This document shows positions 5,461 to 58,405 of a DNA stretch of 64,000 bases, piece by piece. The DNA lies in contig OZ250153.1 in NCBI GenBank assembly GCA_965237805.1, forward strand, positions 1,469,043-1,533,042, written 5' to 3'. This DNA is from Gammaproteobacteria bacterium (GTDB lineage: Bacteria; Pseudomonadota; Gammaproteobacteria; JABABF01). Each line of letters starts with the position of its first letter. The first letter of the stretch is position 1. The translations under genes were made by a program, and so were the position numbers. The notes under the pieces are model-generated. The model searched no databases. It was not told the origin of the DNA and saw nothing but the letters and a program-made list of their open reading frames with translations.

Positions 5461-6411
5461 ATGGGAAATACGCCCACTCAAGCTGACAAAAAAGTTGGCT
5501 CTGGCAAGTCGCTAGTTAGCAATGCCACCTTAGCCTTGGTGCCGGGCGCTGACATTGCCACTTACACCCGCCGTGTGCAATCTATTCCGACGCTGAGCCA
5601 AGAGCAGGAATTGGAGCTGGCACGGGCCTACTACGAAGAGCACGATTTGGAGGCGGCACGGCAGTTGGTGCTGGCCAATTTGCGTCATGTCGCCTATTTG
5701 GCACATCGCTATGCTGGCTACGGCCTGCCGCAGGCCGACCTGATCCAAGAGGGCAACATTGGCCTGATGAAGGCGGTAAAGCGCTTCAATCCCTCAAAGT
5801 TCAAAGTGCGTTTCATCTCTTTCGCCATCCACTGGATTCGGGCGGAGATGCAGGAGTACGTGTTGCGCAACTGGCGCTTGGTCAAGATTGCCACGACCAA
5901 GGCCCAGCGGCGTTTGTTCTTCAAGTTGCGCGGTGAGCGCAAGCACTTGGGAGGGCTGTCGGACGAAGATGCGCGCGATATGGCTGAGAAATTGGCGGTG
6001 CCACTGCGCGAGCTACGGCAGATGGAACTGCGCATGGCGGCACCGGAGGTGTCCTACGACGGCACTACCGAGGCAGCTGATGCCGACGACACGGGTGGCG
6101 GCACCCGCCGGCTCGCGCCAGCCGAGTACCTGGCGGCACCGGATGCCGACCCGGCCGAGGAATTTGAGGCGCTGCACTGGCGGCAGAGCCAAGCCGAGCA
6201 GCTGCATGGTGCCCTAGAGTGTTTGGACGAGCGCAGCCGGGACATTATCAGAGGTCGCTGGCCAGCTGCTGATGTCAAGCGCGCCACCTTGCAGCAGCTG
6301 GCCGATCGTCACGGCATTTCGGCCGAGCGTGTCCGCCAACTCGAGAAGCGCGCCCTGCGTCAGCTGCGCGGGCAGCTGCAACCGAAGAGCGAGCAGAGGC
6401 TGATTGCCTGA
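5461..6411 (+). CDS. rpoH: RNA polymerase sigma-32 heat-shock factor
   Basis: Sigma-70-family regions 2 and 4 plus the RpoH box (QRRLFFKLR). It is immediately downstream of ftsX as in other gammaproteobacteria. Confidence 0.9.
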   Translation: MGNTPTQADKKVGSGKSLVSNATLALVPGADIATYTRRVQSIPTLSQEQELELARAYYEEHDLEAARQLVLANLRHVAYLAHRYAGYGLPQADLIQEGNIGLMKAVKRFNPSKFKVRFISFAIHWIRAEMQEYVLRNWRLVKIATTKAQRRLFFKLRGERKHLGGLSDEDARDMAEKLAVPLRELRQMELRMAAPEVSYDGTTEAADADDTGGGTRRLAPAEYLAAPDADPAEEFEALHWRQSQAEQLHGALECLDERSRDIIRGRWPAADVKRATLQQLADRHGISAERVRQLEKRALRQLRGQLQPKSEQRLIA

Positions 6412-6475
6412 ACAGCTGCGCGGCTCGCCAGTGCCGCATCTGGGCAGGCTGGGAAAGCACTGTAGAGCGGGGCTG

Positions 6476-6847
6476 ATGTCCGCTGCTTTTTTGGCTTTTG
6501 CCGCCGTCAATGGTTTCATCGCTACGGCTGTTGCCGCCGCCGCTTCCCATGTGCTACCCAAGCAGTTGTCAAGCGCTGAATTGGCGCTGGTGGAGACGGC
6601 GTGGCCGTTGCAGTTCACCCACGCCTTGGCGCTGATCACCGTCGCGCTACTGCTTGAGCGCAGCCCGGCGAGCGAGTGGTTGCTGGCGGCTGCTTGGCTG
6701 TTCTCCTTGGGTTTGGTCATGTTCAGTTGGGCGTTGTATTTGACGGCCTTCAGCGGTGTGCGCTCGCCGTTGCCGCCGCTGGGCGGCGTGTGCCTGATGC
6801 TGGCTTGGCTGGCGCTGGCGGTGGCGGCGTTGCGTGGATTGCACTGA
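6476..6847 (+). CDS. DUF423 (YgdD-like) small membrane protein
   Basis: ~123 aa with 4 hydrophobic helices and a DUF423-like layout. The start was chosen at the internal Met (MSAAFLAF). Confidence 0.5.
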   Translation: MSAAFLAFAAVNGFIATAVAAAASHVLPKQLSSAELALVETAWPLQFTHALALITVALLLERSPASEWLLAAAWLFSLGLVMFSWALYLTAFSGVRSPLPPLGGVCLMLAWLALAVAALRGLH

Positions 6848-8077: not shown

Positions 8078-9019
8078 TCAGCTGCCCCAGCGGAGCTGCA
8101 CCAAGCTTTCGCTGAGCTGCCACAGTCGCTCCGCCGCTTTATCTGAGCGAGCGTAGGCTTTGGTACGGCACACTGCACGATTGCGGTAATAGCCGCCGTT
8201 GGCACTGCTCAGCGCCGCTTCGGTGCACAGCCAGACAGCGGTGTCGGCACCCTGTGCCGGGCTGTTTGTCAACGGGCTGATCAGCCACATCGCCATCCGT
8301 GCGGGCAGACTATGACCGATGATGCCGCTGTTGACCACGCCCGGTGACATGGCGTTGACCGTGATGCTACTGCCTTTGGCTCGCCGCGCCAAGGCGTGCA
8401 TGAACAGCAGGCCGCACAGCTTGGCACGGCAATAGTTGCCGATGCTGAAGTAGGGCGAGCGATCGCGCATCAGGTCATTGAAGTCTAGGGACGGAGCCAG
8501 TCGGTGGGCGAGAGAGGAGATGACGATGATGCGTGCTGGAGCTGATGCCTGTAGCCGCGGCCACAGCAGGCCGGTGAGCAGGAATGGGGCCAAGTGATTG
8601 ACCGCTATGCTGGCTTCATGGCCCTCGGCACTGCGCTGCCGGGTGGCGAATAGGGCTCCAGCGTTGTGCACTAGCACATGCAGGGCTTGCCCGCTGTCTA
8701 AATAGCCTTGGGCGGCGCGCCGTAGCGCGGACAGCGACTTGAGATCGCAGCAGAAAGCTGCGGGTCGCTGTCCAGTCTCGTCGGCGATTTGTTGCTGCAC
8801 CGCTGCGATGCGACTGGCGTTGCGGCCGCCGACCACGACTTTGGCACCGGCCCGCGCCAGCGCCAAGGCGATTTCGCGCCCAATACCGTTGGTCGCACCG
8901 GTCACGAGACAGCTCTTGCCAGCGATGTCCCAAGGAAGGCGTATCACCCCACTGGTGTCCGCTAGCTGCCCCATCACCGATTTGCCGCTTCTGGGTGGTG
9001 CTTGTTCACCAGTTGCCAC
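8078..9019 (-). CDS. Short-chain dehydrogenase/reductase (SDR) family oxidoreductase, paralog 1
   Basis: TGATNGIGREIA Rossmann motif, NAG motif and catalytic YCRAK. Confidence 0.75.
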   Translation of the reverse strand: MATGEQAPPRSGKSVMGQLADTSGVIRLPWDIAGKSCLVTGATNGIGREIALALARAGAKVVVGGRNASRIAAVQQQIADETGQRPAAFCCDLKSLSALRRAAQGYLDSGQALHVLVHNAGALFATRQRSAEGHEASIAVNHLAPFLLTGLLWPRLQASAPARIIVISSLAHRLAPSLDFNDLMRDRSPYFSIGNYCRAKLCGLLFMHALARRAKGSSITVNAMSPGVVNSGIIGHSLPARMAMWLISPLTNSPAQGADTAVWLCTEAALSSANGGYYRNRAVCRTKAYARSDKAAERLWQLSESLVQLRWGS

Positions 9020-9103: not shown

Positions 9104-10021
9104 TCAGTCGCTCCAGCGATGATCGACCAAGTCTTCGCTGGCTTGCCACAGCTGCTCTGCGATCTCGTCCGAGCGGGCATCGGCGCGGGGCTTGTGTGGG
9201 GCGCGATTGAAGTAATAGCCGCCGTTGGCAGCGCTCAGCGCAGGGTCGGTGGCCAGCCAGACGGCGGTGTCGGCACCCTGTGCCGGGGTGCGCGCAAACG
9301 GTCGGAGCAGCGCCATCATCAGGCGCCCAACCCATTGTTTTCCAGCGAGTCCGGTGGCGACCAAGCTCGGGTGCATGGCGGTGACGGTGACGCCGCTGCC
9401 CTCGATGCGTTTTGCCAAGGCGTGTGTGAATAGCAGGTTGCACAGTTTGGAGCGCCCGTAGCTCTCCATATTGAAATAGAACGCTTGCTCGCGCATCAGG
9501 TCGTCGAAATCCAGTGACTTGCTCGAGCGGTGGGCATCGGAGGCGACGATGACAATGCGCGCCGGTGCCGATTCCTTGAGTCTGGGCCACAGCATGCAGC
9601 TGAGCAGAAAAGGTGCCAAGTGGTTGATAGCCATGCTGGCCTCATAGCCGTCGGCGCTGTGTTGCCGGCGGCCGAAGACGGCACCAGCGTTGTTCATCAG
9701 CATGTGTAGTGGTCGACTACTGTCCAAATACTCGTTGGCGGCGCGGCGCACATCCGCCAGCGAGTTAAAGTCGCAGCACATCGCATCGGGGCGTTGCCCG
9801 GTCTCGTCGGCGATTTGGTCTTGCACGGTCGCGCAACGTTCGGGGCTGCGTCCACCGATGACGACTTCGGCACCGGCCTTGGCCAGTGCCAAGGCGGCGG
9901 CACGTCCGATGCCATTGGTCGCACCGGTCACAAGGCAGACCTTGCCAGCGATATCCCACGCTGCCTCGGTCGTCTGTGCCGTCTCTTTGGGCTGTTCTGT
10001 CATCCGCTGTTTTCCTCGCAA
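9104..10021 (-). CDS. SDR family oxidoreductase, paralog 2 (tandem duplicate)
   Basis: TGATNGIGRAAA, NNAG and YGRSK motifs. It is ~65% identical to the upstream SDR over the full length. Confidence 0.75.
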   Translation of the reverse strand: MRGKQRMTEQPKETAQTTEAAWDIAGKVCLVTGATNGIGRAAALALAKAGAEVVIGGRSPERCATVQDQIADETGQRPDAMCCDFNSLADVRRAANEYLDSSRPLHMLMNNAGAVFGRRQHSADGYEASMAINHLAPFLLSCMLWPRLKESAPARIVIVASDAHRSSKSLDFDDLMREQAFYFNMESYGRSKLCNLLFTHALAKRIEGSGVTVTAMHPSLVATGLAGKQWVGRLMMALLRPFARTPAQGADTAVWLATDPALSAANGGYYFNRAPHKPRADARSDEIAEQLWQASEDLVDHRWSD

Positions 10022-20781: not shown

Positions 20782-21441
20782 ATGCGGGTCGCGGTCGTGT
20801 TATCAGGTTGCGGCGTCTACGATGGCGCCGAAATCCACGAGAGTGTGTTCACACTTTTGGCGCTTTCGCAGCGTGGCGCAGAGGCGGTGTGCTTGGCACC
20901 AGATATCCCCCAGCAGGTGGTCATCGACCACTTGTCGGCTGAGGAGCAAGCGGGGGAGCAACGCAATGTGCTGGTCGAGGCGGCGCGCATCGCCCGCGGT
21001 GCGGTAGGCGATCTCGCCACTTCCGAGCCGGGCGATTTTGATGCTGCCATCCTCCCGGGGGGGTTTGGTGTGGCGCGCAATCTCAGCGACTATATTTCGG
21101 CTGGCAGCAACTGCCGGATGTTGGCTCAGCTGGAGGCTTGGCTGGGGAGTTTTCGCGATGCGCGGCGACCGGTGGGCCTGTTGTGTATCGCGCCGGTATT
21201 GGCTGCGCGCATCTACGGTGCCGGGGTGCGTTGCACCATCGGCGACGATGTTGGCACGGCGGTGGATTTGGAGACGATGGGTGCGCGCCATCAAGACTGC
21301 ACCGTGGCCGAGCGCTGCGTCGATACCGGGCACCGTTTGGTCACATCGCCCGCCTATATGCTCGGGCAGAGTCCTGCCGAGGTGTGGCAGAGCGTGGACG
21401 GCTTGGTGGCCGATGTGCTGGCCTTGGCCGGCGAGTCCTGA
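20782..21441 (+). CDS. elbB: Glyoxalase ElbB (DJ-1/PfpI family)
   Basis: Strong full-length similarity to E. coli ElbB (VLSGCGVYDGAEIHE...ILPGGFG...CIAP...TSPAYM). The second ATG (20782) has better RBS spacing than 20776. Confidence 0.8.
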   Translation: MRVAVVLSGCGVYDGAEIHESVFTLLALSQRGAEAVCLAPDIPQQVVIDHLSAEEQAGEQRNVLVEAARIARGAVGDLATSEPGDFDAAILPGGFGVARNLSDYISAGSNCRMLAQLEAWLGSFRDARRPVGLLCIAPVLAARIYGAGVRCTIGDDVGTAVDLETMGARHQDCTVAERCVDTGHRLVTSPAYMLGQSPAEVWQSVDGLVADVLALAGES

Positions 21442-21479
21442 ATACGGCTGGCTGGCATCATCGCCGAGGCAACGCTCAA

Positions 21480-22282
21480 GTGCCCGTTTTCCGCCACACC
21501 GAGCGTCCCTGCTTGGTGCTGAACAGCCTCAAGGTCATGTACTCGACTTTGTGCGCTGTGCCGCAGCTGCGCCACTGCTTGTTACGCGATGCCTTGTTGG
21601 GGGCCTTGCTGGCTCGGCCCCGCCTCGAGGCGTATTGGGTGGTGCGCGACCCTTATCAGCGCCTGCAGTCCTGCTTCCGCGACAAATTCCACAATTGCCC
21701 CCCCCCCAAGTGGAGGGCGAGCGCAAGTCATACGCGCTGCAGATGGATCTGCTGTCCATACGGGAGCACGGCCATATGGGGAGATTTGATCTGATGCCCT
21801 TGGATGCGCTGTGGCGGCGGTGCCGCGAACTGGAATTTGAGGATTTCATCACCCTATTGCCAGAGTATTACCACATCAACCGGCATTTTTGGCCGCAGCA
21901 CTGGGAGGCGCATCCAGCGCTGTTCTACAGGCAGTGGTGTCGTCTCGCTGCGCTGCAGGCTCCTCGGTCGTGGCGCCGACTAGGGCGATTGCTTGTTGCG
22001 CTGGCATATCCGGATCGCTTCCCGCGCGTGGAACTGCGCGTCCTGCGGATGGAAAATGCCGGTGACATCGCGTTGTTGGGGCGTGCCATCGGCTACGATT
22101 TGGCATCCCTCAAGCTATGCAGCACCGCCCATTTGCAGGTAGACACCCGCTACAGCCGCCGGACGCTGGCGATTGTCAATGAGCTGTACCGCGAGGATTT
22201 CCGTCGCTTAGGCTACGCGATGTACAGCGAGCCAGCGCAGTTGGCGGCTGCAGAAAAGGCGGCGAGCACCGTCGCAGTCTAG
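21480..22282 (+). pseudogene. Sulfotransferase (Sulfotransfer_2-like) interrupted by a +/-1 frameshift at a poly-C(10) tract
   Basis: Frame A (21480-21707) encodes ...YWVVRDPYQRLQSCFRDKF (3'-PB-like motif). Frame B (21708-22282) continues to the typical ...NELYREDFRRLGY C-terminus. The join is the C10 run at 21698-21707. Confidence 0.45.
21698..21707 (+). repeat. Homopolymeric C10 tract
   Basis: Ten consecutive C residues, at the point where the sulfotransferase reading frame switches. Confidence 0.9.
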
Positions 22283-22710
22283 CTGGTGCTGTCTGTCGTA
22301 CCTGCGTCGCCGCTTGTGGCGGCGGCCTCTGTCGCCGCTAGCTCTACCGCCAAGTAGGCGCGCTTGGCCGCCCGTCCGTTGCGTTCGGCGAACCAGTCGC
22401 CGAGGCGCATCTGCCAGCCATATTTGTCTCGCAGCGCGGTGTGTGCCAGCTCTCTGTCTGCCGGGTCTGTCAAGATGCGTGCCGTCGCTGGCAACCACGG
22501 ACCGCGTAGCTTCCCCCACGCATTGCAGCTGGCAACCCGCGAGCGCGAGGAGTTGCGCAGGCGCTTGACCTTGCCAGCATTGCCAGCACTGAAGAGATAC
22601 AAACTGCCGTTGCATTCGGCAAACCACACCGGTGTGTCGACCGCCACCCCGCTTTTGCGGTAGCTGCTGAAGTTGATGAAGCGGCTGTCGCGCGGCAGCT
22701 GCAAAGTCAT
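22279..22710 (-). CDS. PNPOx-like split-barrel flavin-binding protein (PPOX class / probable flavin reductase-like)
   Basis: Start at MTLQLPRDSRFINFSSYRKSGVAVDTPVWF..., a pyridoxamine-5'-phosphate-oxidase-like fold signature. Confidence 0.5.
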   Translation of the reverse strand: MTLQLPRDSRFINFSSYRKSGVAVDTPVWFAECNGSLYLFSAGNAGKVKRLRNSSRSRVASCNAWGKLRGPWLPATARILTDPADRELAHTALRDKYGWQMRLGDWFAERNGRAAKRAYLAVELAATEAAATSGDAGTTDSTS

Positions 22711-22717
22711 CGCGGCA

Positions 22718-23992
22718 TCAGATGAAGACATCGCTGTTGTCTTGCCCCAGCAGCATGGCACCGTAGTTGCGCGCAAAACTGGTCGGGTTGTTGGCCACGT
22801 GACTGCGGCTGGTCAGCAGATCCAAATAGGCTTGCTGGATGTCGCTGCCGAGGAAGACCGAGCGCCCGCCCGCCGTCGCGATCAGGGGCTGTGCTGCTGC
22901 CAGACAGCGAGCGACCACGATGGAGGCCTGATAGCGGTAGCGCGCGCGGACATCCATCGGCATTGCGTCGTCATTTTCGACGTACTGTGCGAGCCGCTCC
23001 ATATTGCGGTGCAGCATCATTGCCAGTTCGTCGACGGTATTGCTGGCGTGGGCGAGCAGCTCCTGCGTGGCAACATCTTCTGCCAGCTTGGTGGGGTCGC
23101 CACTGTGGCGGCTTTTGGCACCGTCGATGCGCAGCTCGACGATGCGCTTGAGCAGGCTGATCGGCGTGGTGGCCACGGCACGCACAAAGATCTGCCCCCA
23201 CGGGATACGGTAGACCGGATTGTCGTGGATTTTGTAGCCGGGATTGGTCAAATTGAAGCCATCCATTTGGTGGTGGGTGCGGTACTCGGGGACAAAGCAG
23301 TCCGCGACCACGATGTCTTTGCTACCCGTGCCCTGCAAGCCCATCACGTGCCAAGTGTCGTCGATCTTGTAGTCGGAACGTGGGACTAGGAAGGTGCGGT
23401 AGTGGGTATCGCCTTCATCGAAGACGAGCCCGCCGAGCAGGGCCCATTCGCAGTGGTCGCAACCACTGGACCAGCCCCAGCGTCCGCTGAAGCGGAAGCC
23501 GTCGTCGCAGCGCTCCACCTTGCCCATTGGCGCGTAGGAAGAGGAGACCAGCGTGTCGGGGTCGTCGCTCCACACCTCTTCTTGGGCGCGCTGATCGTAG
23601 AGAGCCAACTGGAAAGGGTGGACACCGATCACGCCGCAGACCCAGCCGGTCGCAGCGCAGCTCTCGGAGATCATCAGAACGAGCTGGCCGAAATCGGCGG
23701 GCTCCAATTCCAAGCCGCCGTAGCGTTGTGGCTGGAGCAGGCGAAAATAGCCAGCTGCTTTGAGCTCGGCGATGCTTGCCGCTGGCAGCATGCGCTGCTT
23801 GCGGGCGACGTCTGAGCGTTCCTGAAACTTGGGCAAAAGCGCCTCTACTGCCTCGTAGACCGCGTGCCGGGTGGCGGCCTTTTCATCGGGGTCGCGCACT
23901 GCTGTCTTCGCCACCGTAGCCATATTGCGCCGCCTCTCTGGCGTGTTTAACTCGTAGTTTTTAATTATCACCCGGTGCTTGGGGACTGTCAA
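22718..23992 (-). CDS. Acyl-CoA-dehydrogenase-fold flavin-dependent monooxygenase (HsaA/HpaH/group-D-like oxygenase component)
   Basis: 424 aa with ACAD N/M/C domains but the monooxygenase-type substitutions (WGWSSGCDH..., C-terminal 4-helix domain), as in two-component flavin hydroxylases. Confidence 0.55.
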   Translation of the reverse strand: MTVPKHRVIIKNYELNTPERRRNMATVAKTAVRDPDEKAATRHAVYEAVEALLPKFQERSDVARKQRMLPAASIAELKAAGYFRLLQPQRYGGLELEPADFGQLVLMISESCAATGWVCGVIGVHPFQLALYDQRAQEEVWSDDPDTLVSSSYAPMGKVERCDDGFRFSGRWGWSSGCDHCEWALLGGLVFDEGDTHYRTFLVPRSDYKIDDTWHVMGLQGTGSKDIVVADCFVPEYRTHHQMDGFNLTNPGYKIHDNPVYRIPWGQIFVRAVATTPISLLKRIVELRIDGAKSRHSGDPTKLAEDVATQELLAHASNTVDELAMMLHRNMERLAQYVENDDAMPMDVRARYRYQASIVVARCLAAAQPLIATAGGRSVFLGSDIQQAYLDLLTSRSHVANNPTSFARNYGAMLLGQDNSDVFI

Positions 23993-35690: not shown

Positions 35691-37232
35691 TTATACGTTC
35701 CGGCTGGTGCTGATCAGGTACTCGGTCTTGGTTGCGACTGGTGGATAGAGTTCGTCCAGCGGTGCAGAACGACCATTCTGTTGCACTTGACGCGCATGGG
35801 AGCGCCGCAGTTCACGTGCCTCCCGGAGCCCACAAGAATGGGCGATGACCTGCACCTCTTTGATAGTGTTGCGAGCGTAGTGCGCTACGCGTTGCGCTTT
35901 GGCCTCGGGTACCAAGCCGTTTTGCAGGCGCTCATTGTGGGTTGTGATGCCCGTTGGGCAAGTGTCGCGGTTGCATTGCAATGCTTGGATGCAGCCCAAG
36001 GCGAACATGAAGCCGCGTGCCGAGCTGATGAAGTTGGCACCCATGCACAGCGCCCAAGCGATGGAGCCCGGGGTGATCAACTTGCCCGAAGCGATGATGC
36101 GGATTTCTTCGCGCAGACCGTATTTTGTCAATATGTCCACAGCCATCGGTAGGCTCTCGCGTAACGGCAGGCCGACATAGTCCATCAGGCTTTGCGGGGC
36201 GGCACCGGTGCCGCCGTCGGCGCTGTCGATGGTGATGAAGTCAGGTGCCGATTCGATGCCTCGCTGGTGGATAGCCTCCATCAATTCGTGCAGCCACCCT
36301 TGGCCGCCGAGCACGGCCTTGAAGCCCACCGGTCGACCCGTGACCGAGCGCACCCGTTCGATCATATCAAGCAGCTCTGCCACCGAGCCGATATCCAAGT
36401 GCGCGTTGGGGCTACGCGAATCCTCGCCCGCGGGGATGCCGCGGATCGAAGCGACTTCTGGCGTCACCTTCAGCCCGGGCAGGATCCCGCCTTTGCCGGG
36501 CTTGGCTCCTTGGCTCAGTTTGATCTCGAACATGCGCAAGCGCTCGTATTGCGACAGTTCGCGCAATCGCTCATCTGATAATTGACCGTGTTCGTCGCGC
36601 ACGCCGTACTTGGCGGTGCCGATCTGGTAGACCAAGTCGCAATCGCCGTCACGGTGGTAGGGGGACATGCCGCCCTCGCCAGTATTCATCCAGATGCCAG
36701 CCTCGTGCGCCCCTCCCGCCAGCGCCTGCACGGCTGGCTTTGATATGGCACCGTAACTCATGCCAGAAATGTTGAACAGTGATTTGGCGAGGTAGGGGCG
36801 CTGGGCGCGCCCAGCGCCGATTTCCAGCGCTGAGATATCACTGGTTTCCTCGGCTTGGAGCGGGAAAGGGCTATTCATGAACAGTACTTCGCCCAGCACG
36901 TTGAGTCGGCGCGTGCTACCAAAGGCGATGGTGTTGTCGTGGTTTTTGGCGGTGCGGTAGGCCCAGCTGCGCTCGGAGCGGTTGAATGGCATCTCTTCGC
37001 GATCCATGGCGAAGAAATATTGGCGGAAGAATTCTCCCAGCTCCTCGAAGAGATAACGGAAGCGGCCGATGACAGGGTAGTTGCGCCGCACGGCGTGGCG
37101 CGTCTGTGTCACATCGACGATGTACATATAGGTGACTGTCAAGATGCCGACACCGATTAGGAAGATCAGCAGGTAGACAGACCATCGTATGAAATCGAAT
37201 ATAAACGTTTCCATCGGAGTGTTTCTCCCCAC
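35691..37232 (-). CDS. FMN-binding glutamate-synthase-domain family protein (GltS large-subunit domain-2-like), N-terminal TM helix
   Basis: Homologous throughout to the FMN/Fe-S domain of glutamate synthase (…GEGGMSPYHRDGDCDLVYQIGTAKYGV…, …KLSQGAKPGKGGILPG…). GTG start 37232 or ATG 37214. Confidence 0.7.
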   Translation of the reverse strand: MGRNTPMETFIFDFIRWSVYLLIFLIGVGILTVTYMYIVDVTQTRHAVRRNYPVIGRFRYLFEELGEFFRQYFFAMDREEMPFNRSERSWAYRTAKNHDNTIAFGSTRRLNVLGEVLFMNSPFPLQAEETSDISALEIGAGRAQRPYLAKSLFNISGMSYGAISKPAVQALAGGAHEAGIWMNTGEGGMSPYHRDGDCDLVYQIGTAKYGVRDEHGQLSDERLRELSQYERLRMFEIKLSQGAKPGKGGILPGLKVTPEVASIRGIPAGEDSRSPNAHLDIGSVAELLDMIERVRSVTGRPVGFKAVLGGQGWLHELMEAIHQRGIESAPDFITIDSADGGTGAAPQSLMDYVGLPLRESLPMAVDILTKYGLREEIRIIASGKLITPGSIAWALCMGANFISSARGFMFALGCIQALQCNRDTCPTGITTHNERLQNGLVPEAKAQRVAHYARNTIKEVQVIAHSCGLREARELRRSHARQVQQNGRSAPLDELYPPVATKTEYLISTSRNV

Positions 37233-37286
37233 TCAGGCAGCGGTCGCTTGGCACTCAGGCAGCGGTCGCTCGGCACTCAGGCGCTG
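37231..37286. repeat. 22-bp direct tandem repeat x ~2.5 spanning glnA stop / downstream gene start junction
   Basis: actcaggcagcggtcgcttggc | actcaggcagcggtcgctcggc | actcaggcgctg. On the coding (minus) strand each unit ends ...GCCTGA|GTG, which repeats the stop-start junction. Confidence 0.8.
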
Positions 37287-54645: not shown

Positions 54646-55770
54646 ATGATGCCGCGCTATTTTGCTTTTGTGCTGGCGCTGGTTGCCGTGTCCATGATAT
54701 GGCCCGCATCGACACACGCCGAGGTTTTCCGCGGCCTGTTCACCGGCACGGTTCCGGTGTGGAGCCGCGATGTGGGTGAGCGCAAAGAGGCGACGACACG
54801 GGCGCTGTTGCAAGTGTTGATCCGCGCCAGTGGACGCTCATCGCTGAGCGAGAATGCCGCCTTGTTGGAGGGCTTGGCCAATACCCAGCGCTTGGTGCGC
54901 TCCTATCGCTATCTGTCGACGGAAGCGGATGAGCGCCTGCAACTCGAGCTGCGCTTTGAACCACGCTTCGTCGAGGCATTGTTGATCAATGCCGGTCTGT
55001 CGGTGTGGCCCGGCAACCGCCCCAATGTTGTTGTCTGGATGGTGCGTGGGGCACCGCAGTCGCGCTTGCGAGAGGTGGATGCCCAGCTCAGCAGGGTCGT
55101 GCGCGACTATTCTGCCCGCCATGGCTTCTTGGTGCGCTTGCCGCTACTCGATCTGGAGGATCGCCGAGCTGTTGCGCCCCGCGATATCTTGCGCCTGCGC
55201 CGCCAGCGTTTGTGGCGCGCTTCGGGGCGCTACCTCGCCGACAGCATCCTCAGCGGTGTGGTGGTCGGTGAGCGCAACTCATGGATCGGGCGTTGGTCCT
55301 ATCTCTACGGTGACCAGCTGCTCAATTTTGCGGTCAGCGGCGACACCGAGTTCGCTGTGTTGCGCACCGCGCTCGACACGATCCGGGCCGCTTTGACCGA
55401 GCGCCAGTCTCTCGACTCTACCACCGCACTGAGCGAGTCGATGCTGTTGTCGCTGGTAGGCGTGGAGCGTTTCGCCGACTACGCCGAGCTGCTGCGTTAT
55501 CTGCAGAACTTGGATCAGGTGCGCTCGGCATCGGTGGTGCAGCTCGACAATCAGCGGCTATTCCTATCCCTCGACGCGCAGGCCTCGCCCGATCGCCTGC
55601 GTGAGCTGTTCGCCCTTGATCGGCGTCTGACCGAGGAAGAGACCGCCGCGGTCGAGCTGGCACAGGCACAGGGCGACGATGGGGCTGAGGCAGAGGGTGA
55701 CGATGGGGCTGAGGCAGAGGGCGTCCAGAGCGCTACTACGCTCTCCTATCGATGGGTGCGCAGTCGTTGA
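54646..55770 (+). CDS. DUF2066 family periplasmic protein
   Basis: Signal peptide plus the DUF2066 pattern. It is in the conserved position between purM and hda. It contains an 8-aa tandem repeat (GDDGAEAE x2) near the C-terminus. Confidence 0.55.
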   Translation: MMPRYFAFVLALVAVSMIWPASTHAEVFRGLFTGTVPVWSRDVGERKEATTRALLQVLIRASGRSSLSENAALLEGLANTQRLVRSYRYLSTEADERLQLELRFEPRFVEALLINAGLSVWPGNRPNVVVWMVRGAPQSRLREVDAQLSRVVRDYSARHGFLVRLPLLDLEDRRAVAPRDILRLRRQRLWRASGRYLADSILSGVVVGERNSWIGRWSYLYGDQLLNFAVSGDTEFAVLRTALDTIRAALTERQSLDSTTALSESMLLSLVGVERFADYAELLRYLQNLDQVRSASVVQLDNQRLFLSLDAQASPDRLRELFALDRRLTEEETAAVELAQAQGDDGAEAEGDDGAEAEGVQSATTLSYRWVRSR

Positions 55771-56579: not shown

Positions 56580-57209
56580 ATGTCGGAGCAGCAACAAAAG
56601 AACAAAGCGAGCAATGTGCATTGGCACGAGGGGGAGGTCTCGCGCGCTGATCGCGAGCAGCTGTTGCGCCAGCGCGGCGGCACACTCTGGTTCACTGGCT
56701 TGTCCGGTAGCGGTAAGAGTACGATCGCGGTGGCCTTGGAGCAGCGTCTCCACAGCGCGGGCTGTCTTTGCTACCGTTTGGATGGCGACAATGTCCGCCT
56801 TGGCATCAACCGTAATCTGGGTTTCAGCGCCGAGGACCGCACTGAAAACATCCGTCGCATCGGCGAGATCTGCAAATTATTTGTCGATGCTGGCGTACTC
56901 GTGATGAGCAGCTTCATCAGCCCATACCGGGCCGATCGTGACACGGCTCGCCGCTTGCACGATGAGGCTGGTATGCCTTTCTTTGAGGTCTATGTCAGCT
57001 GTGCGCTGGAGGCTGCCGAGCACCGCGATCCCAAGGGTCTCTACCGCCGTGCCCGCGCTGGTGAGATCCCGGAGTTCACCGGTATCAGCGCACCCTATGA
57101 GGCTCCTGAAGCTCCCGATTTGGTGCTGCAATCCGACGAGCTCTCGCTGGCGCAAGAGGTGACTCAACTGCTGGCCTTTTTGGCCGAGCGCGGTTTCACC
57201 CAGCAATGA
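56580..57209 (+). CDS. cysC: Adenylyl-sulfate (APS) kinase
   Basis: Walker A (TGLSGSGKST) plus the APS-kinase DGDNVR and SFISPYR motifs. Confidence 0.85.
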   Translation: MSEQQQKNKASNVHWHEGEVSRADREQLLRQRGGTLWFTGLSGSGKSTIAVALEQRLHSAGCLCYRLDGDNVRLGINRNLGFSAEDRTENIRRIGEICKLFVDAGVLVMSSFISPYRADRDTARRLHDEAGMPFFEVYVSCALEAAEHRDPKGLYRRARAGEIPEFTGISAPYEAPEAPDLVLQSDELSLAQEVTQLLAFLAERGFTQQ

Positions 57210-58405
57210 GCACACTGGCACCGCCCTACGGCTCTTCGCGGCTGTTGCCGCGACTGGTCTCCCCCGAGCGTGCGGCACAATTACAGCGCGAGGCGCAGGC
57301 GCTGCCCTCGGCTTTGCTACACTCCGCCGCCGCCGCCAATGCCGTCATGCTGGGGGGCGGGTATTTCACGCCGCTGACGGGCTATATGAACCGCGCCGAT
57401 GCGCTCGGGGTGGCCGCCGATATGCGCACTGCCGACGGCCTGTTTTGGCCGGTGCCGATTTTGAATCGCCTCGCCGAGGAGCCAGCTGTGGAGATCGGCG
57501 GGCAGCTCGCGTTGCGTGATCCCAATCTGCCGGGTCAGCCGCTGTTGGCGGTGCAACACATTGCGGGGGTGGAGCATCTGTCTGCCGACGATCTCACGGC
57601 CTTGACCAGCGGTATTTTTGGCACTGAGGACCCCGCCCACCCGGGGGTTGCCACCTTTTCCGAACAGGGTAATTGCTTGCTGTCGGGGCCAGTGGAAGTG
57701 TTGCACTGCAGCTATTTTGAACGCGATTTTGCCCAGACCTTCCGCACCGCGATGGCGATACGCGATGAGATGGAGCGCCGCGGTTGGAGCCGTGTGGTCG
57801 CCTTTCAGACCCGCAACCCGATGCACCGCGCCCACGAGGAGTTGTGCAAAATGGCCAGCAAAGCGGTGGCGGCAGACGGCATTTTGATCCATATGTTGCT
57901 GGGTCAGCTGAAGCCGGGCGACATTCCTGCCGATGTGCGCGATGCAGCCATTCGCAAGATGGTCGAGCTCTATTTTCCAGAGAACAGCGTGTTGATCAGC
58001 GGCTACGGCTTTGACATGCTTTACGCTGGCCCGCGCGAGGCCTTGCTGCACGCCATCTTTCGTCAGAATTGTGGCTGCTCGCATCTGGTGGTCGGCCGCG
58101 ACCATGCTGGGGTCGGCGACTACTACGGTGCCTTCGATGCCCAGGCGATCTTCGAGCAAGTGCCCGCCGACACGCTGTCGTTGCAACCCTTCCTCGCCGA
58201 TCACACGGCCTGGTCCAAGCGCTTGGGGCGGGTGGTGATGATGCGTGATGTGCCCGACCACAAGCCCGAGGATTTCGTGTTGCTGTCGGGCACCAAGGTG
58301 CGCGAGATGTTGGCCGCGGGCGCGTCCCTGCCGCCAGAATTTGCCCGCCCAGAAGTGGCGCAGATACTGATGAAGTATTATCAGCATCAGTCGGTCTCCA
58401 GCTGA
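57206..58405 (+). CDS. sat: Sulfate adenylyltransferase (ATP sulfurylase, Sat type)
   Basis: QTRNPMHRAHEEL and GRDHAGVG motifs. ATGA overlap with cysC. Confidence 0.8.
   Translation: MSTLAPPYGSSRLLPRLVSPERAAQLQREAQALPSALLHSAAAANAVMLGGGYFTPLTGYMNRADALGVAADMRTADGLFWPVPILNRLAEEPAVEIGGQLALRDPNLPGQPLLAVQHIAGVEHLSADDLTALTSGIFGTEDPAHPGVATFSEQGNCLLSGPVEVLHCSYFERDFAQTFRTAMAIRDEMERRGWSRVVAFQTRNPMHRAHEELCKMASKAVAADGILIHMLLGQLKPGDIPADVRDAAIRKMVELYFPENSVLISGYGFDMLYAGPREALLHAIFRQNCGCSHLVVGRDHAGVGDYYGAFDAQAIFEQVPADTLSLQPFLADHTAWSKRLGRVVMMRDVPDHKPEDFVLLSGTKVREMLAAGASLPPEFARPEVAQILMKYYQHQSVSS

Follow-up and report, generated by a model that had tools for sequence, protein, structure and literature searches.

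A putative sulfotransferase gene split at a ten-cytosine tract in an uncultured gammaproteobacterial genome

The split gene and its poly-C tract

The window, the whole stretch of DNA analysed here, comprises 64,000 nucleotides of contig OZ250153.1 (assembly GCA_965237805.1) of an uncultured Gammaproteobacteria bacterium, and contains a gene for a putative sulfotransferase whose coding sequence lies in two adjacent frames. The frames are joined at a run of exactly ten C residues, which is the point of the frame switch (Table 1). The upstream frame encodes MPVFRHTERPCLVLNSLKVMYSTL...WVVRDPYQRLQSCFRDKFHNCPPP, and the downstream frame, in codons read from its first position, encodes QVEGERKSY...NELYREDFRRLGYAMYSEP.... 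The locus was compared with L001, the syntenic orthologous locus on an ENA metagenome contig, and with the metagenome-assembled genome 'Gammaproteobacteria bacterium bin4o', hereafter bin4o.

The run spans codons 73–76, in the 5′ third of the open reading frame (ORF). Frame arithmetic gives an OFF state at 9 or 10 C and an ON state at 8 or 11: one added C yields an uninterrupted ORF of 267 aa, and removal of two C yields one of 266 aa. A one-base change in tract length thus restores the frame, and the peptide across the junction in the full-length frame is DKFHNCPPPQVEGER. A sequence-only reading of this DNA had proposed that 11 or 8 C would give one intact ORF of about 265 aa; the joined frames and the single ORF are confirmed, and the size is corrected to 266 or 267 aa.

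Because of the C10 tract, translation ends at 104 residues, of which 28 are out-of-frame codons, and the catalytic half is missing from the product. This 104-aa product is identical to a protein in the public collection, P0007, and the last 162 residues of the C-terminal segment correspond to a second called protein, P0002. Both derive from a contig of 1,725,584 bp, and since both were called as fragments, the deposited sequence must also carry C10.

Table 1. Positions of the split gene, its parts and the other features discussed. Positions refer to the window unless another locus is named.
Feature	Position	Strand	Remarks
elbB-like (DJ-1/PfpI-type) gene	20782–21441	+	39 nt upstream of the sulfotransferase start
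High-identity block (about 0.85 kb)	21380–22220 (approximate bounds)	+	From sliding-window identity; L001 about 5900–6760
GAGG, possible ribosome-binding site	21466–21469	+	11–14 nt before GTG; same in L001
N-terminal coding segment, residues 1–76	21480–21707	+	Starts GTG at 21480; from sequence and translation
Codon of K18	21531–21533	+	5′-phosphosulfate-binding-like loop
Poly-C tract, ten C, frame switch	21698–21707	+	Read directly; C5 in L001, no run in bin4o
C-terminal coding segment, other frame, residues 77–267	21707–22282	+	Ends TAG at 22280–22282
Out-of-frame tail in the C10 state, KWRASASHTRCRWICCPYGSTAIWGDLI	21708–21794	+	Ends TGA at 21792–21794
Codon of H136	21884–21886	+	Invariant His
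Convergent 165-aa gene	22279–22776	−	Overlaps the sulfotransferase stop codon by 4 nt
cysC, APS kinase	56580–57209	+	Pfam APS_kinase, 220 bits
sat, ATP sulfurylase	57206–58405	+	Pfam ATP-sulfurylase, 250 bits, and PUA_2
Other homopolymers of 7 nt or more (complete list)	20240; 21057; 53265		C7; G7; C7
Short-chain dehydrogenase genes	8078–9019; 9104–10021	−	Adjacent; same Pfam families
Tandem repeat	37230–37282		22-nt unit, 2.4 copies, 96% matches
Tandem repeat	55664–55723		24-nt unit, 2.5 copies
Tandem duplication, L001	6226–6279		27 nt, perfect, in frame
Sulfotransferase-family copies, bin4o	L002 2809–3645; L003 3362–4527; L004; L005 2–676 and 1530–1772; L006 1–500		At least six copies on five loci
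Gene for protein with two GT2 domains, bin4o	L002 1056–2639		527 aa

The tract is the longest homopolymer in the window, the GC content of which measures 62.9% and not the approximately 67% first estimated. Four runs of at least 7 nt were observed against roughly 26 G/C runs expected from an independent, identically distributed base-composition calculation, so that homopolymers are depleted; the same calculation gives 0.93 expected G/C runs of at least 10 per window. Counts of G/C runs of lengths 1 to 10 were 22261, 6427, 1201, 265, 66, 16, 3, 0, 0 and 1, a decay of approximately 4.4-fold per extra base. From this decay, 0.05 runs of at least 10 would be expected per 64 kb and about 1.4 per 1.73-Mb genome; the C10 tract is therefore an outlier within the window, and its chance occurrence genome-wide is still possible. 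An excess of long tracts, the genome-level mark of contingency loci, was not seen within the window, to which this comparison was confined, and no other simple sequence repeat (SSR) loci or multi-copy SSRs were found in the 64 kb.

The run length also bears on whether the split is real. A true tract of C11 (or C8), and hence an intact gene, would make the split an artefact of consensus assembly or base calling, an explanation we regard as a serious but somewhat unlikely one. The size of the source contig points to long-read data, a single base restores the frame, and the gene is otherwise undamaged, with seven invariant residues kept, no stops, and derived amino-acid changes divided equally with the intact orthologue, as detailed below. 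For Nanopore R10.4 data, most homopolymers shorter than 11 bp are correctly resolved at the consensus level, a point against an artefact; the same benchmark work expects that runs of at least 10 'will probably still be problematic' and notes trouble specific to cytosine at lengths as short as 8–9 (PMC9262707). Also against an artefact, no other frameshifted gene was detected in the window despite 19 G/C runs of 6–7 and 11 A/T runs of 6, and the gene family bears real lesions at the syntenic locus in bin4o.

The frameshift screen combined greedy ORF tiling with Pfam coverage, a frame plot of GC content at third codon positions (GC3) being too noisy at 63% GC. Tiling placed approximately 57 ORFs over 95.6% of the window, at ordinary spacing and with no other split gene. 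Same-strand overlapping pairs (coaD/rsmD and purN/purM) are separate complete genes, about 30 genes checked show full-length Pfam domain coverage, and none of the genes holding the three 7-nt runs is disrupted. For runs up to 7, consensus quality is thus high, which says nothing direct about a run of 10. In its outward form the locus resembles both homopolymer pseudogenes and the gene-fragmenting consensus errors of long-read assemblies, in that one gene is split into two coding sequences exactly at the longest homopolymer; unlike such cases, the rest of the window is free of this fragmentation. As a practical matter, the tract should be flagged for a read check before the gene is annotated as either a pseudogene or intact.

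Family and predicted fold of the fused product

The translation fused across the two frames matches Pfam family PF03567 (Sulfotransfer_2) with 35.2 bits against a gathering cut-off of 22 (E=1.9e-8), and the match, covering fused residues 54–247, crosses the junction at residue ~76. Only profile positions 86–252 are aligned, the N-terminal part with the 5′-phosphosulfate-binding (5′-PSB) region being left unaligned. Paralogues from bin4o loci L002 and L003 likewise pass PF03567, and NCBIfam contains no model that matches the fused protein. Together with the conserved residues and the orthologue model described below, this match bears out the earlier proposal that the two frames jointly encode a complete sulfotransferase-family protein.

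Relatives are few. A word-indexed search of 5.8 billion protein clusters returned only five, among them neither a near-identical intact allele nor a tract-length variant; look-ups of the clusters supplied no names for the proteins, and a metagenome scan returned two distant relatives (22% identity) and one fragment only, with no tract alleles. An exhaustive profile search of 1.84 billion representatives recovered 228 relatives at E≤1e-3, mostly of 215–230 aa. These define a wider, apparently uncharacterised family of sulfotransferase-like proteins of about 215–230 aa (P0008–P0153 among them), recognisable by the motifs MP.F…KVM.STL, LVRNPY.RL.SF…K, H.xPQ and IVN.xY..DF..(F/Y)GY. The gene product in the window is a clade-specific long form (about 267–279 aa) of this wider bacterial family of ~220-aa proteins in PF03567. 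The N-terminal motif MP.F.H is common to the window protein, its L001 orthologue P0001, P0005, P0006 and the wider family. The long form was seen only in three related uncultured gammaproteobacterial genomes, making this a very rare subfamily among billions of proteins.

Seven columns are invariant among 85 aligned homologues: K18, R56, S64, H143, Q147, Y243 and D246 in P0001 numbering; T23 is nearly or fully invariant. All seven are kept across the two frames in the window. The N-terminal segment carries K18 in a 5′-PSB-like loop, and R56 and S64 in a 3′-phosphate-binding (3′-PB)-like motif, VVRDPYQRLQSCFRDKF, with the Arg and the Ser at a helix start (VVRDPYQRLQSCF); the C-terminal segment carries H136, Q140, Y237 and D240. 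Presumably, these residues match the 5′-PSB Lys, the 3′-PB Arg and Ser, and the catalytic His of sulfotransferases dependent on 3′-phosphoadenosine-5′-phosphosulfate (PAPS). H136 (H143 in P0001) lies in an H-F-W-P-Q motif in which it and Q140 are invariant across the 85 sequences, and may by this conservation be the catalytic residue. The family profile also aligns weakly (E=0.15) with the 3′-PB motif of the CurM sulfotransferase, LVRHPYSVIESF.

An AlphaFold2 model of P0001, which is 84% identical to the window protein, has a mean predicted local distance difference test score (pLDDT) of 85.1 and a predicted template modelling score of 0.84, and shows the sulfotransferase (P-loop-like α/β) fold. 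PF03567 comprises PAPS-dependent carbohydrate-type sulfotransferases, and the nearest solved folds are heparan sulfate (HS) 3-O-sulfotransferase 5 (3bd9, 7sce), HS 6-O-sulfotransferase (5t03), the NDST sulfotransferase domain (1nst) and StaL (2ov8). Like these enzymes, the modelled protein has a 3′-phosphate-binding motif of the form R..(P)Y.R..S and an invariant His in H.(W/x)PQ; its N-terminal strand-loop-helix with an invariant Lys may correspond to their 5′-PSB region. K18 sits in the loop between strand 11–15 and helix 21–25, within the motif N-S-L-K-V-M-Y-S-T-L. Unlike the canonical PKxGxT(S/T), the 5′-PSB loop of this family reads (N/S)xKVMxxTL. The combined evidence supports the fused gene product as a real but very divergent sulfotransferase-fold protein, putatively of the PAPS-dependent type.

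Related loci and the state of the gene

In L001 the gene order is DUF484, dapF, lysA, rho, trx, elbB-like, sulfotransferase, a gene of 159 aa and acyl-CoA dehydrogenase, and the syntenic sulfotransferase, P0001, is intact at 270 aa, in contrast to the disrupted ORF of the window. At the tract site the three genomes read CGCGCTTTCCCCCAAGTGG in L001, CGCGCCATGCCTGAGCGG in bin4o and CACAATTGCCCCCCCCCCAAGTGG in the window; in wider context, L001 has C5 (…AAATTCCGCGCTTTCCCCCAAGTGGAGG…), bin4o has no run (…AAATTACGCGCCATGCCTGAGCGGATGG…; tract-site sequence CCATGCCTGAG) and the window has C10 (…AAATTCCACAATTGCCCCCCCCCCAAGTGGAGG…). The window is 5 nt longer than L001 at the tract, and an in-frame change would take +3 or +6. 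Four substitutions cluster within the 9 nt directly before the tract. By this comparison, the C tract is a derived and lineage-specific feature.

Nowhere is the family alignment less conserved than at the tract site. In the P0001 model it falls at the end of helix 58–78, just ahead of residues 81–90, which form the sole internal low-confidence block (pLDDT near 52). In the same loop, L001 carries a perfect tandem duplication of 27 nt that keeps the frame (GTGGAGGGCGAGCGCAAGTCATACCCG twice, giving the peptide VEGERKSYP twice). The loop is an indel hotspot, where added prolines should be tolerated.

Among species-representative genomes, bin4o is the only one with relatives of the gene; it has five matching loci and at least six copies of the family (Table 1). 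The small contigs suggest the orders rho, trx and two sulfotransferase genes (L003), then sulfotransferase, elbB and sulfotransferase (L005), continued on L006 by the remainder of that last sulfotransferase gene, a gene of 148 aa, acyl-CoA dehydrogenase, parC and a serB-like gene. Several of the copies apparently make up an array that surrounds elbB and is bounded by trx on one side and the acyl-CoA dehydrogenase gene on the other. In the syntenic copy, a pseudogene that follows elbB, a 1-nt deletion affects a C5 run after codon 8, and a further in-frame deletion of ~90 aa has eliminated the invariant His and Gln; the same allele was found independently in a Logan assembly (P0004). Of the three syntenic genes, that of L001 is therefore intact, that of bin4o dead, and that of the window broken, or at least apparently so. 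The clade appears isolated: the closest relatives have 84% protein identity for the sulfotransferase and 84% and 79% for ElbB, the next-best ElbB homologues outside this trio are about 61% identical, and rho is 85–90% identical within it.

The divergence between the window and L001 is uneven. A block of about 0.85 kb (Table 1) covers the sulfotransferase gene, the 39 nt that precede it and ~60 nt at the 3′ end of the elbB-like gene, and is 94–100% identical to L001 except at a linker around 21690–21710, which holds the C tract and the 27-nt duplication of L001, and in a dip to 82–90% around 21865–22025. Outside the block, identity is approximately 71–88% in the flanks and 45–55% in other spacers. 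Nei–Gojobori (NG86) estimates of synonymous divergence (dS), nonsynonymous divergence (dN) and their ratio (ω) were 0.131, 0.085 and 0.65 for the sulfotransferase, compared with 0.695, 0.064 and 0.09 for rho and 0.662, 0.086 and 0.13 for the elbB-like gene. Synonymous divergence of the sulfotransferase is below that of its neighbours (Fisher p=4e-17), and its ratio of nonsynonymous to synonymous differences departs from that of rho (Fisher p=1e-7) but not from neutral expectation (p=0.13). The block accordingly shares a much more recent ancestry than its surroundings, which we attribute to recent recombination or lateral exchange between divergent lineages; since that exchange, the gene seems to have evolved under weak constraint or diversifying selection. 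This island of high identity between genomes otherwise ~80% identical at the locus is the most unusual feature of the region. Foreign base composition, considered as a sign of transfer, is unsupported: GC and GC3 of the gene resemble those of its neighbours, with a GC3 of about 0.72 in the C-terminal part.

Polarised with six outgroup paralogues, the 36 amino-acid differences between the window and L001 comprise 10 derived in the window, 10 derived in L001 and 16 ambiguous. An old pseudogene confined to the window lineage is ruled out by this symmetry (p<0.008 if ω in L001 is ≤0.3), and the raised ω characterises the gene itself, not its frameshifted state, since the intact L001 lineage accounts for an equal part of the excess. 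The window copy has no extra stops or indels. The frameshift, if real, would thus be young, given that no other stop has arisen, no invariant residue has been lost and the changes divide 10:10.

Taking these observations together, we favour a real and recent slipped-strand frameshift that switched off a dispensable, fast-evolving accessory gene, with a probability of roughly 0.47. The gene would then be an incipient pseudogene at a mutationally reversible site and not an evolved contingency switch. On this account C10 is real, arose by replication slippage and was neutral or nearly so. The C run would have grown in this lineage, in a disordered surface loop just past the 3′-phosphate-binding helix, at a site where the orthologue has five C; an in-frame C8 or C11 state would merely add one or two prolines to the loop, and the present C10 state would stop translation after 104 residues, leaving the catalytic half unmade. 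Dispensability is supported by an ω of 0.65, not distinguishable from neutrality, and by the pseudogenised syntenic copy in bin4o. As it stands, this is a routine case of an accessory gene broken at a long homopolymer, set in a subfamily that has multiplied in one genome, has a dead or broken syntenic copy in two, and has lately passed between divergent genomes.

Several points weigh against a neutral, recent frameshift. A consensus error of C10 for C11 would fall at the most error-prone site of the window (PMC9262707). The 10:10 split and the intact motifs would equally fit a gene that is intact, and misread, or one that is reversibly switched. The recent cross-lineage exchange (dS 0.13 against ~0.68) suggests a present or recent selective value, which fits neutral decay less well, and an ω of 0.65 could reflect diversifying selection instead of relaxation. 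Finally, neither the window nor the protein collection yielded a second family member for this genome, so that a real frameshift would abolish the function entirely, a stronger claim.

The sequence-only reading had listed phase variation, decay and mis-assembly as explanations; this was the right set of options, and the evidence leans towards a dispensable, fast-evolving gene. It had further presented such a tract, at the frame switch of a surface-modification enzyme, as a classic mark of phase variation; this description is not supported, given the absence of the tract from both relatives, the depletion of homopolymers and lack of other SSR loci in the window, and the housekeeping setting. 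An evolved contingency locus, in which slipped-strand mispairing of the C tract toggles a glycan- or surface-modifying sulfotransferase sequenced in its OFF state, is in our judgement unlikely, although a number of features fit it. In Neisseria, homopolymers of 8 or more are mostly variable (PMC5084427), a length that C10 exceeds. The tract is one slip from ON and is the sole long tract in a homopolymer-depleted window. The contig is small (1.73 Mb), and many SSR-using host-associated bacteria have small genomes. The family also has hallmarks of interaction genes, namely its paralogues in bin4o, recent lateral exchange and raised ω.

The glycan-related settings of two family members also count in favour of such a locus and hint at a possible substrate. 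The L002 paralogue of bin4o lies directly downstream of the gene for a protein with two GT2 glycosyltransferase domains, the sole contextual hint of a glycan substrate within the clade, and the window contains no homologue of that protein. Among distant family members, P0008 sits within a glycan cluster, among glycosyltransferases and another sulfotransferase, and P0009 sits among housekeeping genes. A glycan acceptor is plausible.

The tract itself is less accommodating to a contingency locus: it is kept in neither relative, the syntenic copy in bin4o is irreversibly dead, and no length variant or intact near-identical allele emerged from the protein clusters. The 64 kb hold no further SSR loci, and the neighbourhood of the window copy is housekeeping, without glycan genes. 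A full-text literature search returned no phase-variable sulfotransferase among its 12 top-ranked matches. The G/C-tract phase-variable genes of Neisseria, Campylobacter, Helicobacter and Haemophilus (for example, lgt glycosyltransferases, siaD and futA/B) share with the window gene an intragenic run of at least 8 in the 5′ part, a probable glycan-modifying enzyme as product, and a frame toggled by a single-base change; unlike in those genes, the tract in the window is not common to relatives and no such tracts are enriched nearby. In its fullest form, this explanation would posit a true contingency switch of surface-glycan sulfation in an uncultured small-genome lineage, with a clade-restricted, array-forming, laterally exchanged family under diversifying selection, which we consider quite improbable. 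If true, the switch would parallel, by way of sulfation, what phase-variable glycosyltransferases do in mucosal pathogens. Were the tract proved heterogeneous in reads, it would reveal, in an uncultured lineage, a phase-variable enzyme class undocumented as far as the literature search found.

A last explanation accepts C10 in the DNA and invokes recoding, full-length protein being made through RNA-polymerase slippage (+1 C) or through -1 ribosomal frameshifting on C CCC CCC; we consider this very improbable. In formal terms the C run fits the X XXY YYZ heptamer perfectly, and by arithmetic the frame is restored either by a transcript longer by 1 nt or by a -1 slip of the ribosome. Transcriptional slippage is known to rescue homopolymer-frameshifted genes in reduced endosymbiont genomes; however, the known efficient slippage sites are A/T runs. 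Against recoding, downstream RNA structure is not significant (z=-1.28), there is no Rfam element at the site, and the slippery site is absent from the orthologues, where the protein lies in one frame.

Neighbouring genes and sulfate-donor supply

Turning to the surroundings of the gene, its neighbours are of housekeeping type (rho, trx, elbB-like, acyl-CoA dehydrogenase and parC), and none of the neighbours checked is a glycan gene. The elbB-like gene takes its name from the source names of its homologues; its DJ-1_PfpI match (23.5 bits) falls under the Pfam gathering score of 26.6. A scan found no promoter-like or terminator-like site between this gene and the sulfotransferase gene, and the two therefore probably form one transcription unit. 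Repeat and promoter/terminator scans around the gene likewise revealed no mobile-element ends and no promoter of its own. On the other side, the short convergent gene that overlaps the sulfotransferase stop codon is conserved across the trio, with counterparts of 159 aa in L001 and 148 aa in bin4o, and gave no Pfam match.

The cysC and sat genes, which the sequence-only reading placed 35 kb downstream as the source of PAPS for the sulfotransferase, are confirmed as a pair by their Pfam matches. They overlap by 4 nt and stand alone as a pair, flanked by an hda-like gene and a short-chain dehydrogenase gene; the neighbours checked included no cysH, cysDN or cysQ. The pair shows that PAPS, presumably the sulfate donor, can be produced, and its feeding of the sulfotransferase is no more than a possibility. 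In many Gammaproteobacteria, PAPS is made for sulfate assimilation as well.

Elsewhere in the window, two adjacent short-chain dehydrogenase genes of the same Pfam families suggest a tandem paralogue pair. Two short tandem repeats were also noted (Table 1), one between a glutamate-synthase-like gene and glnA, and the other near the 3′ end of a DUF2066 gene.

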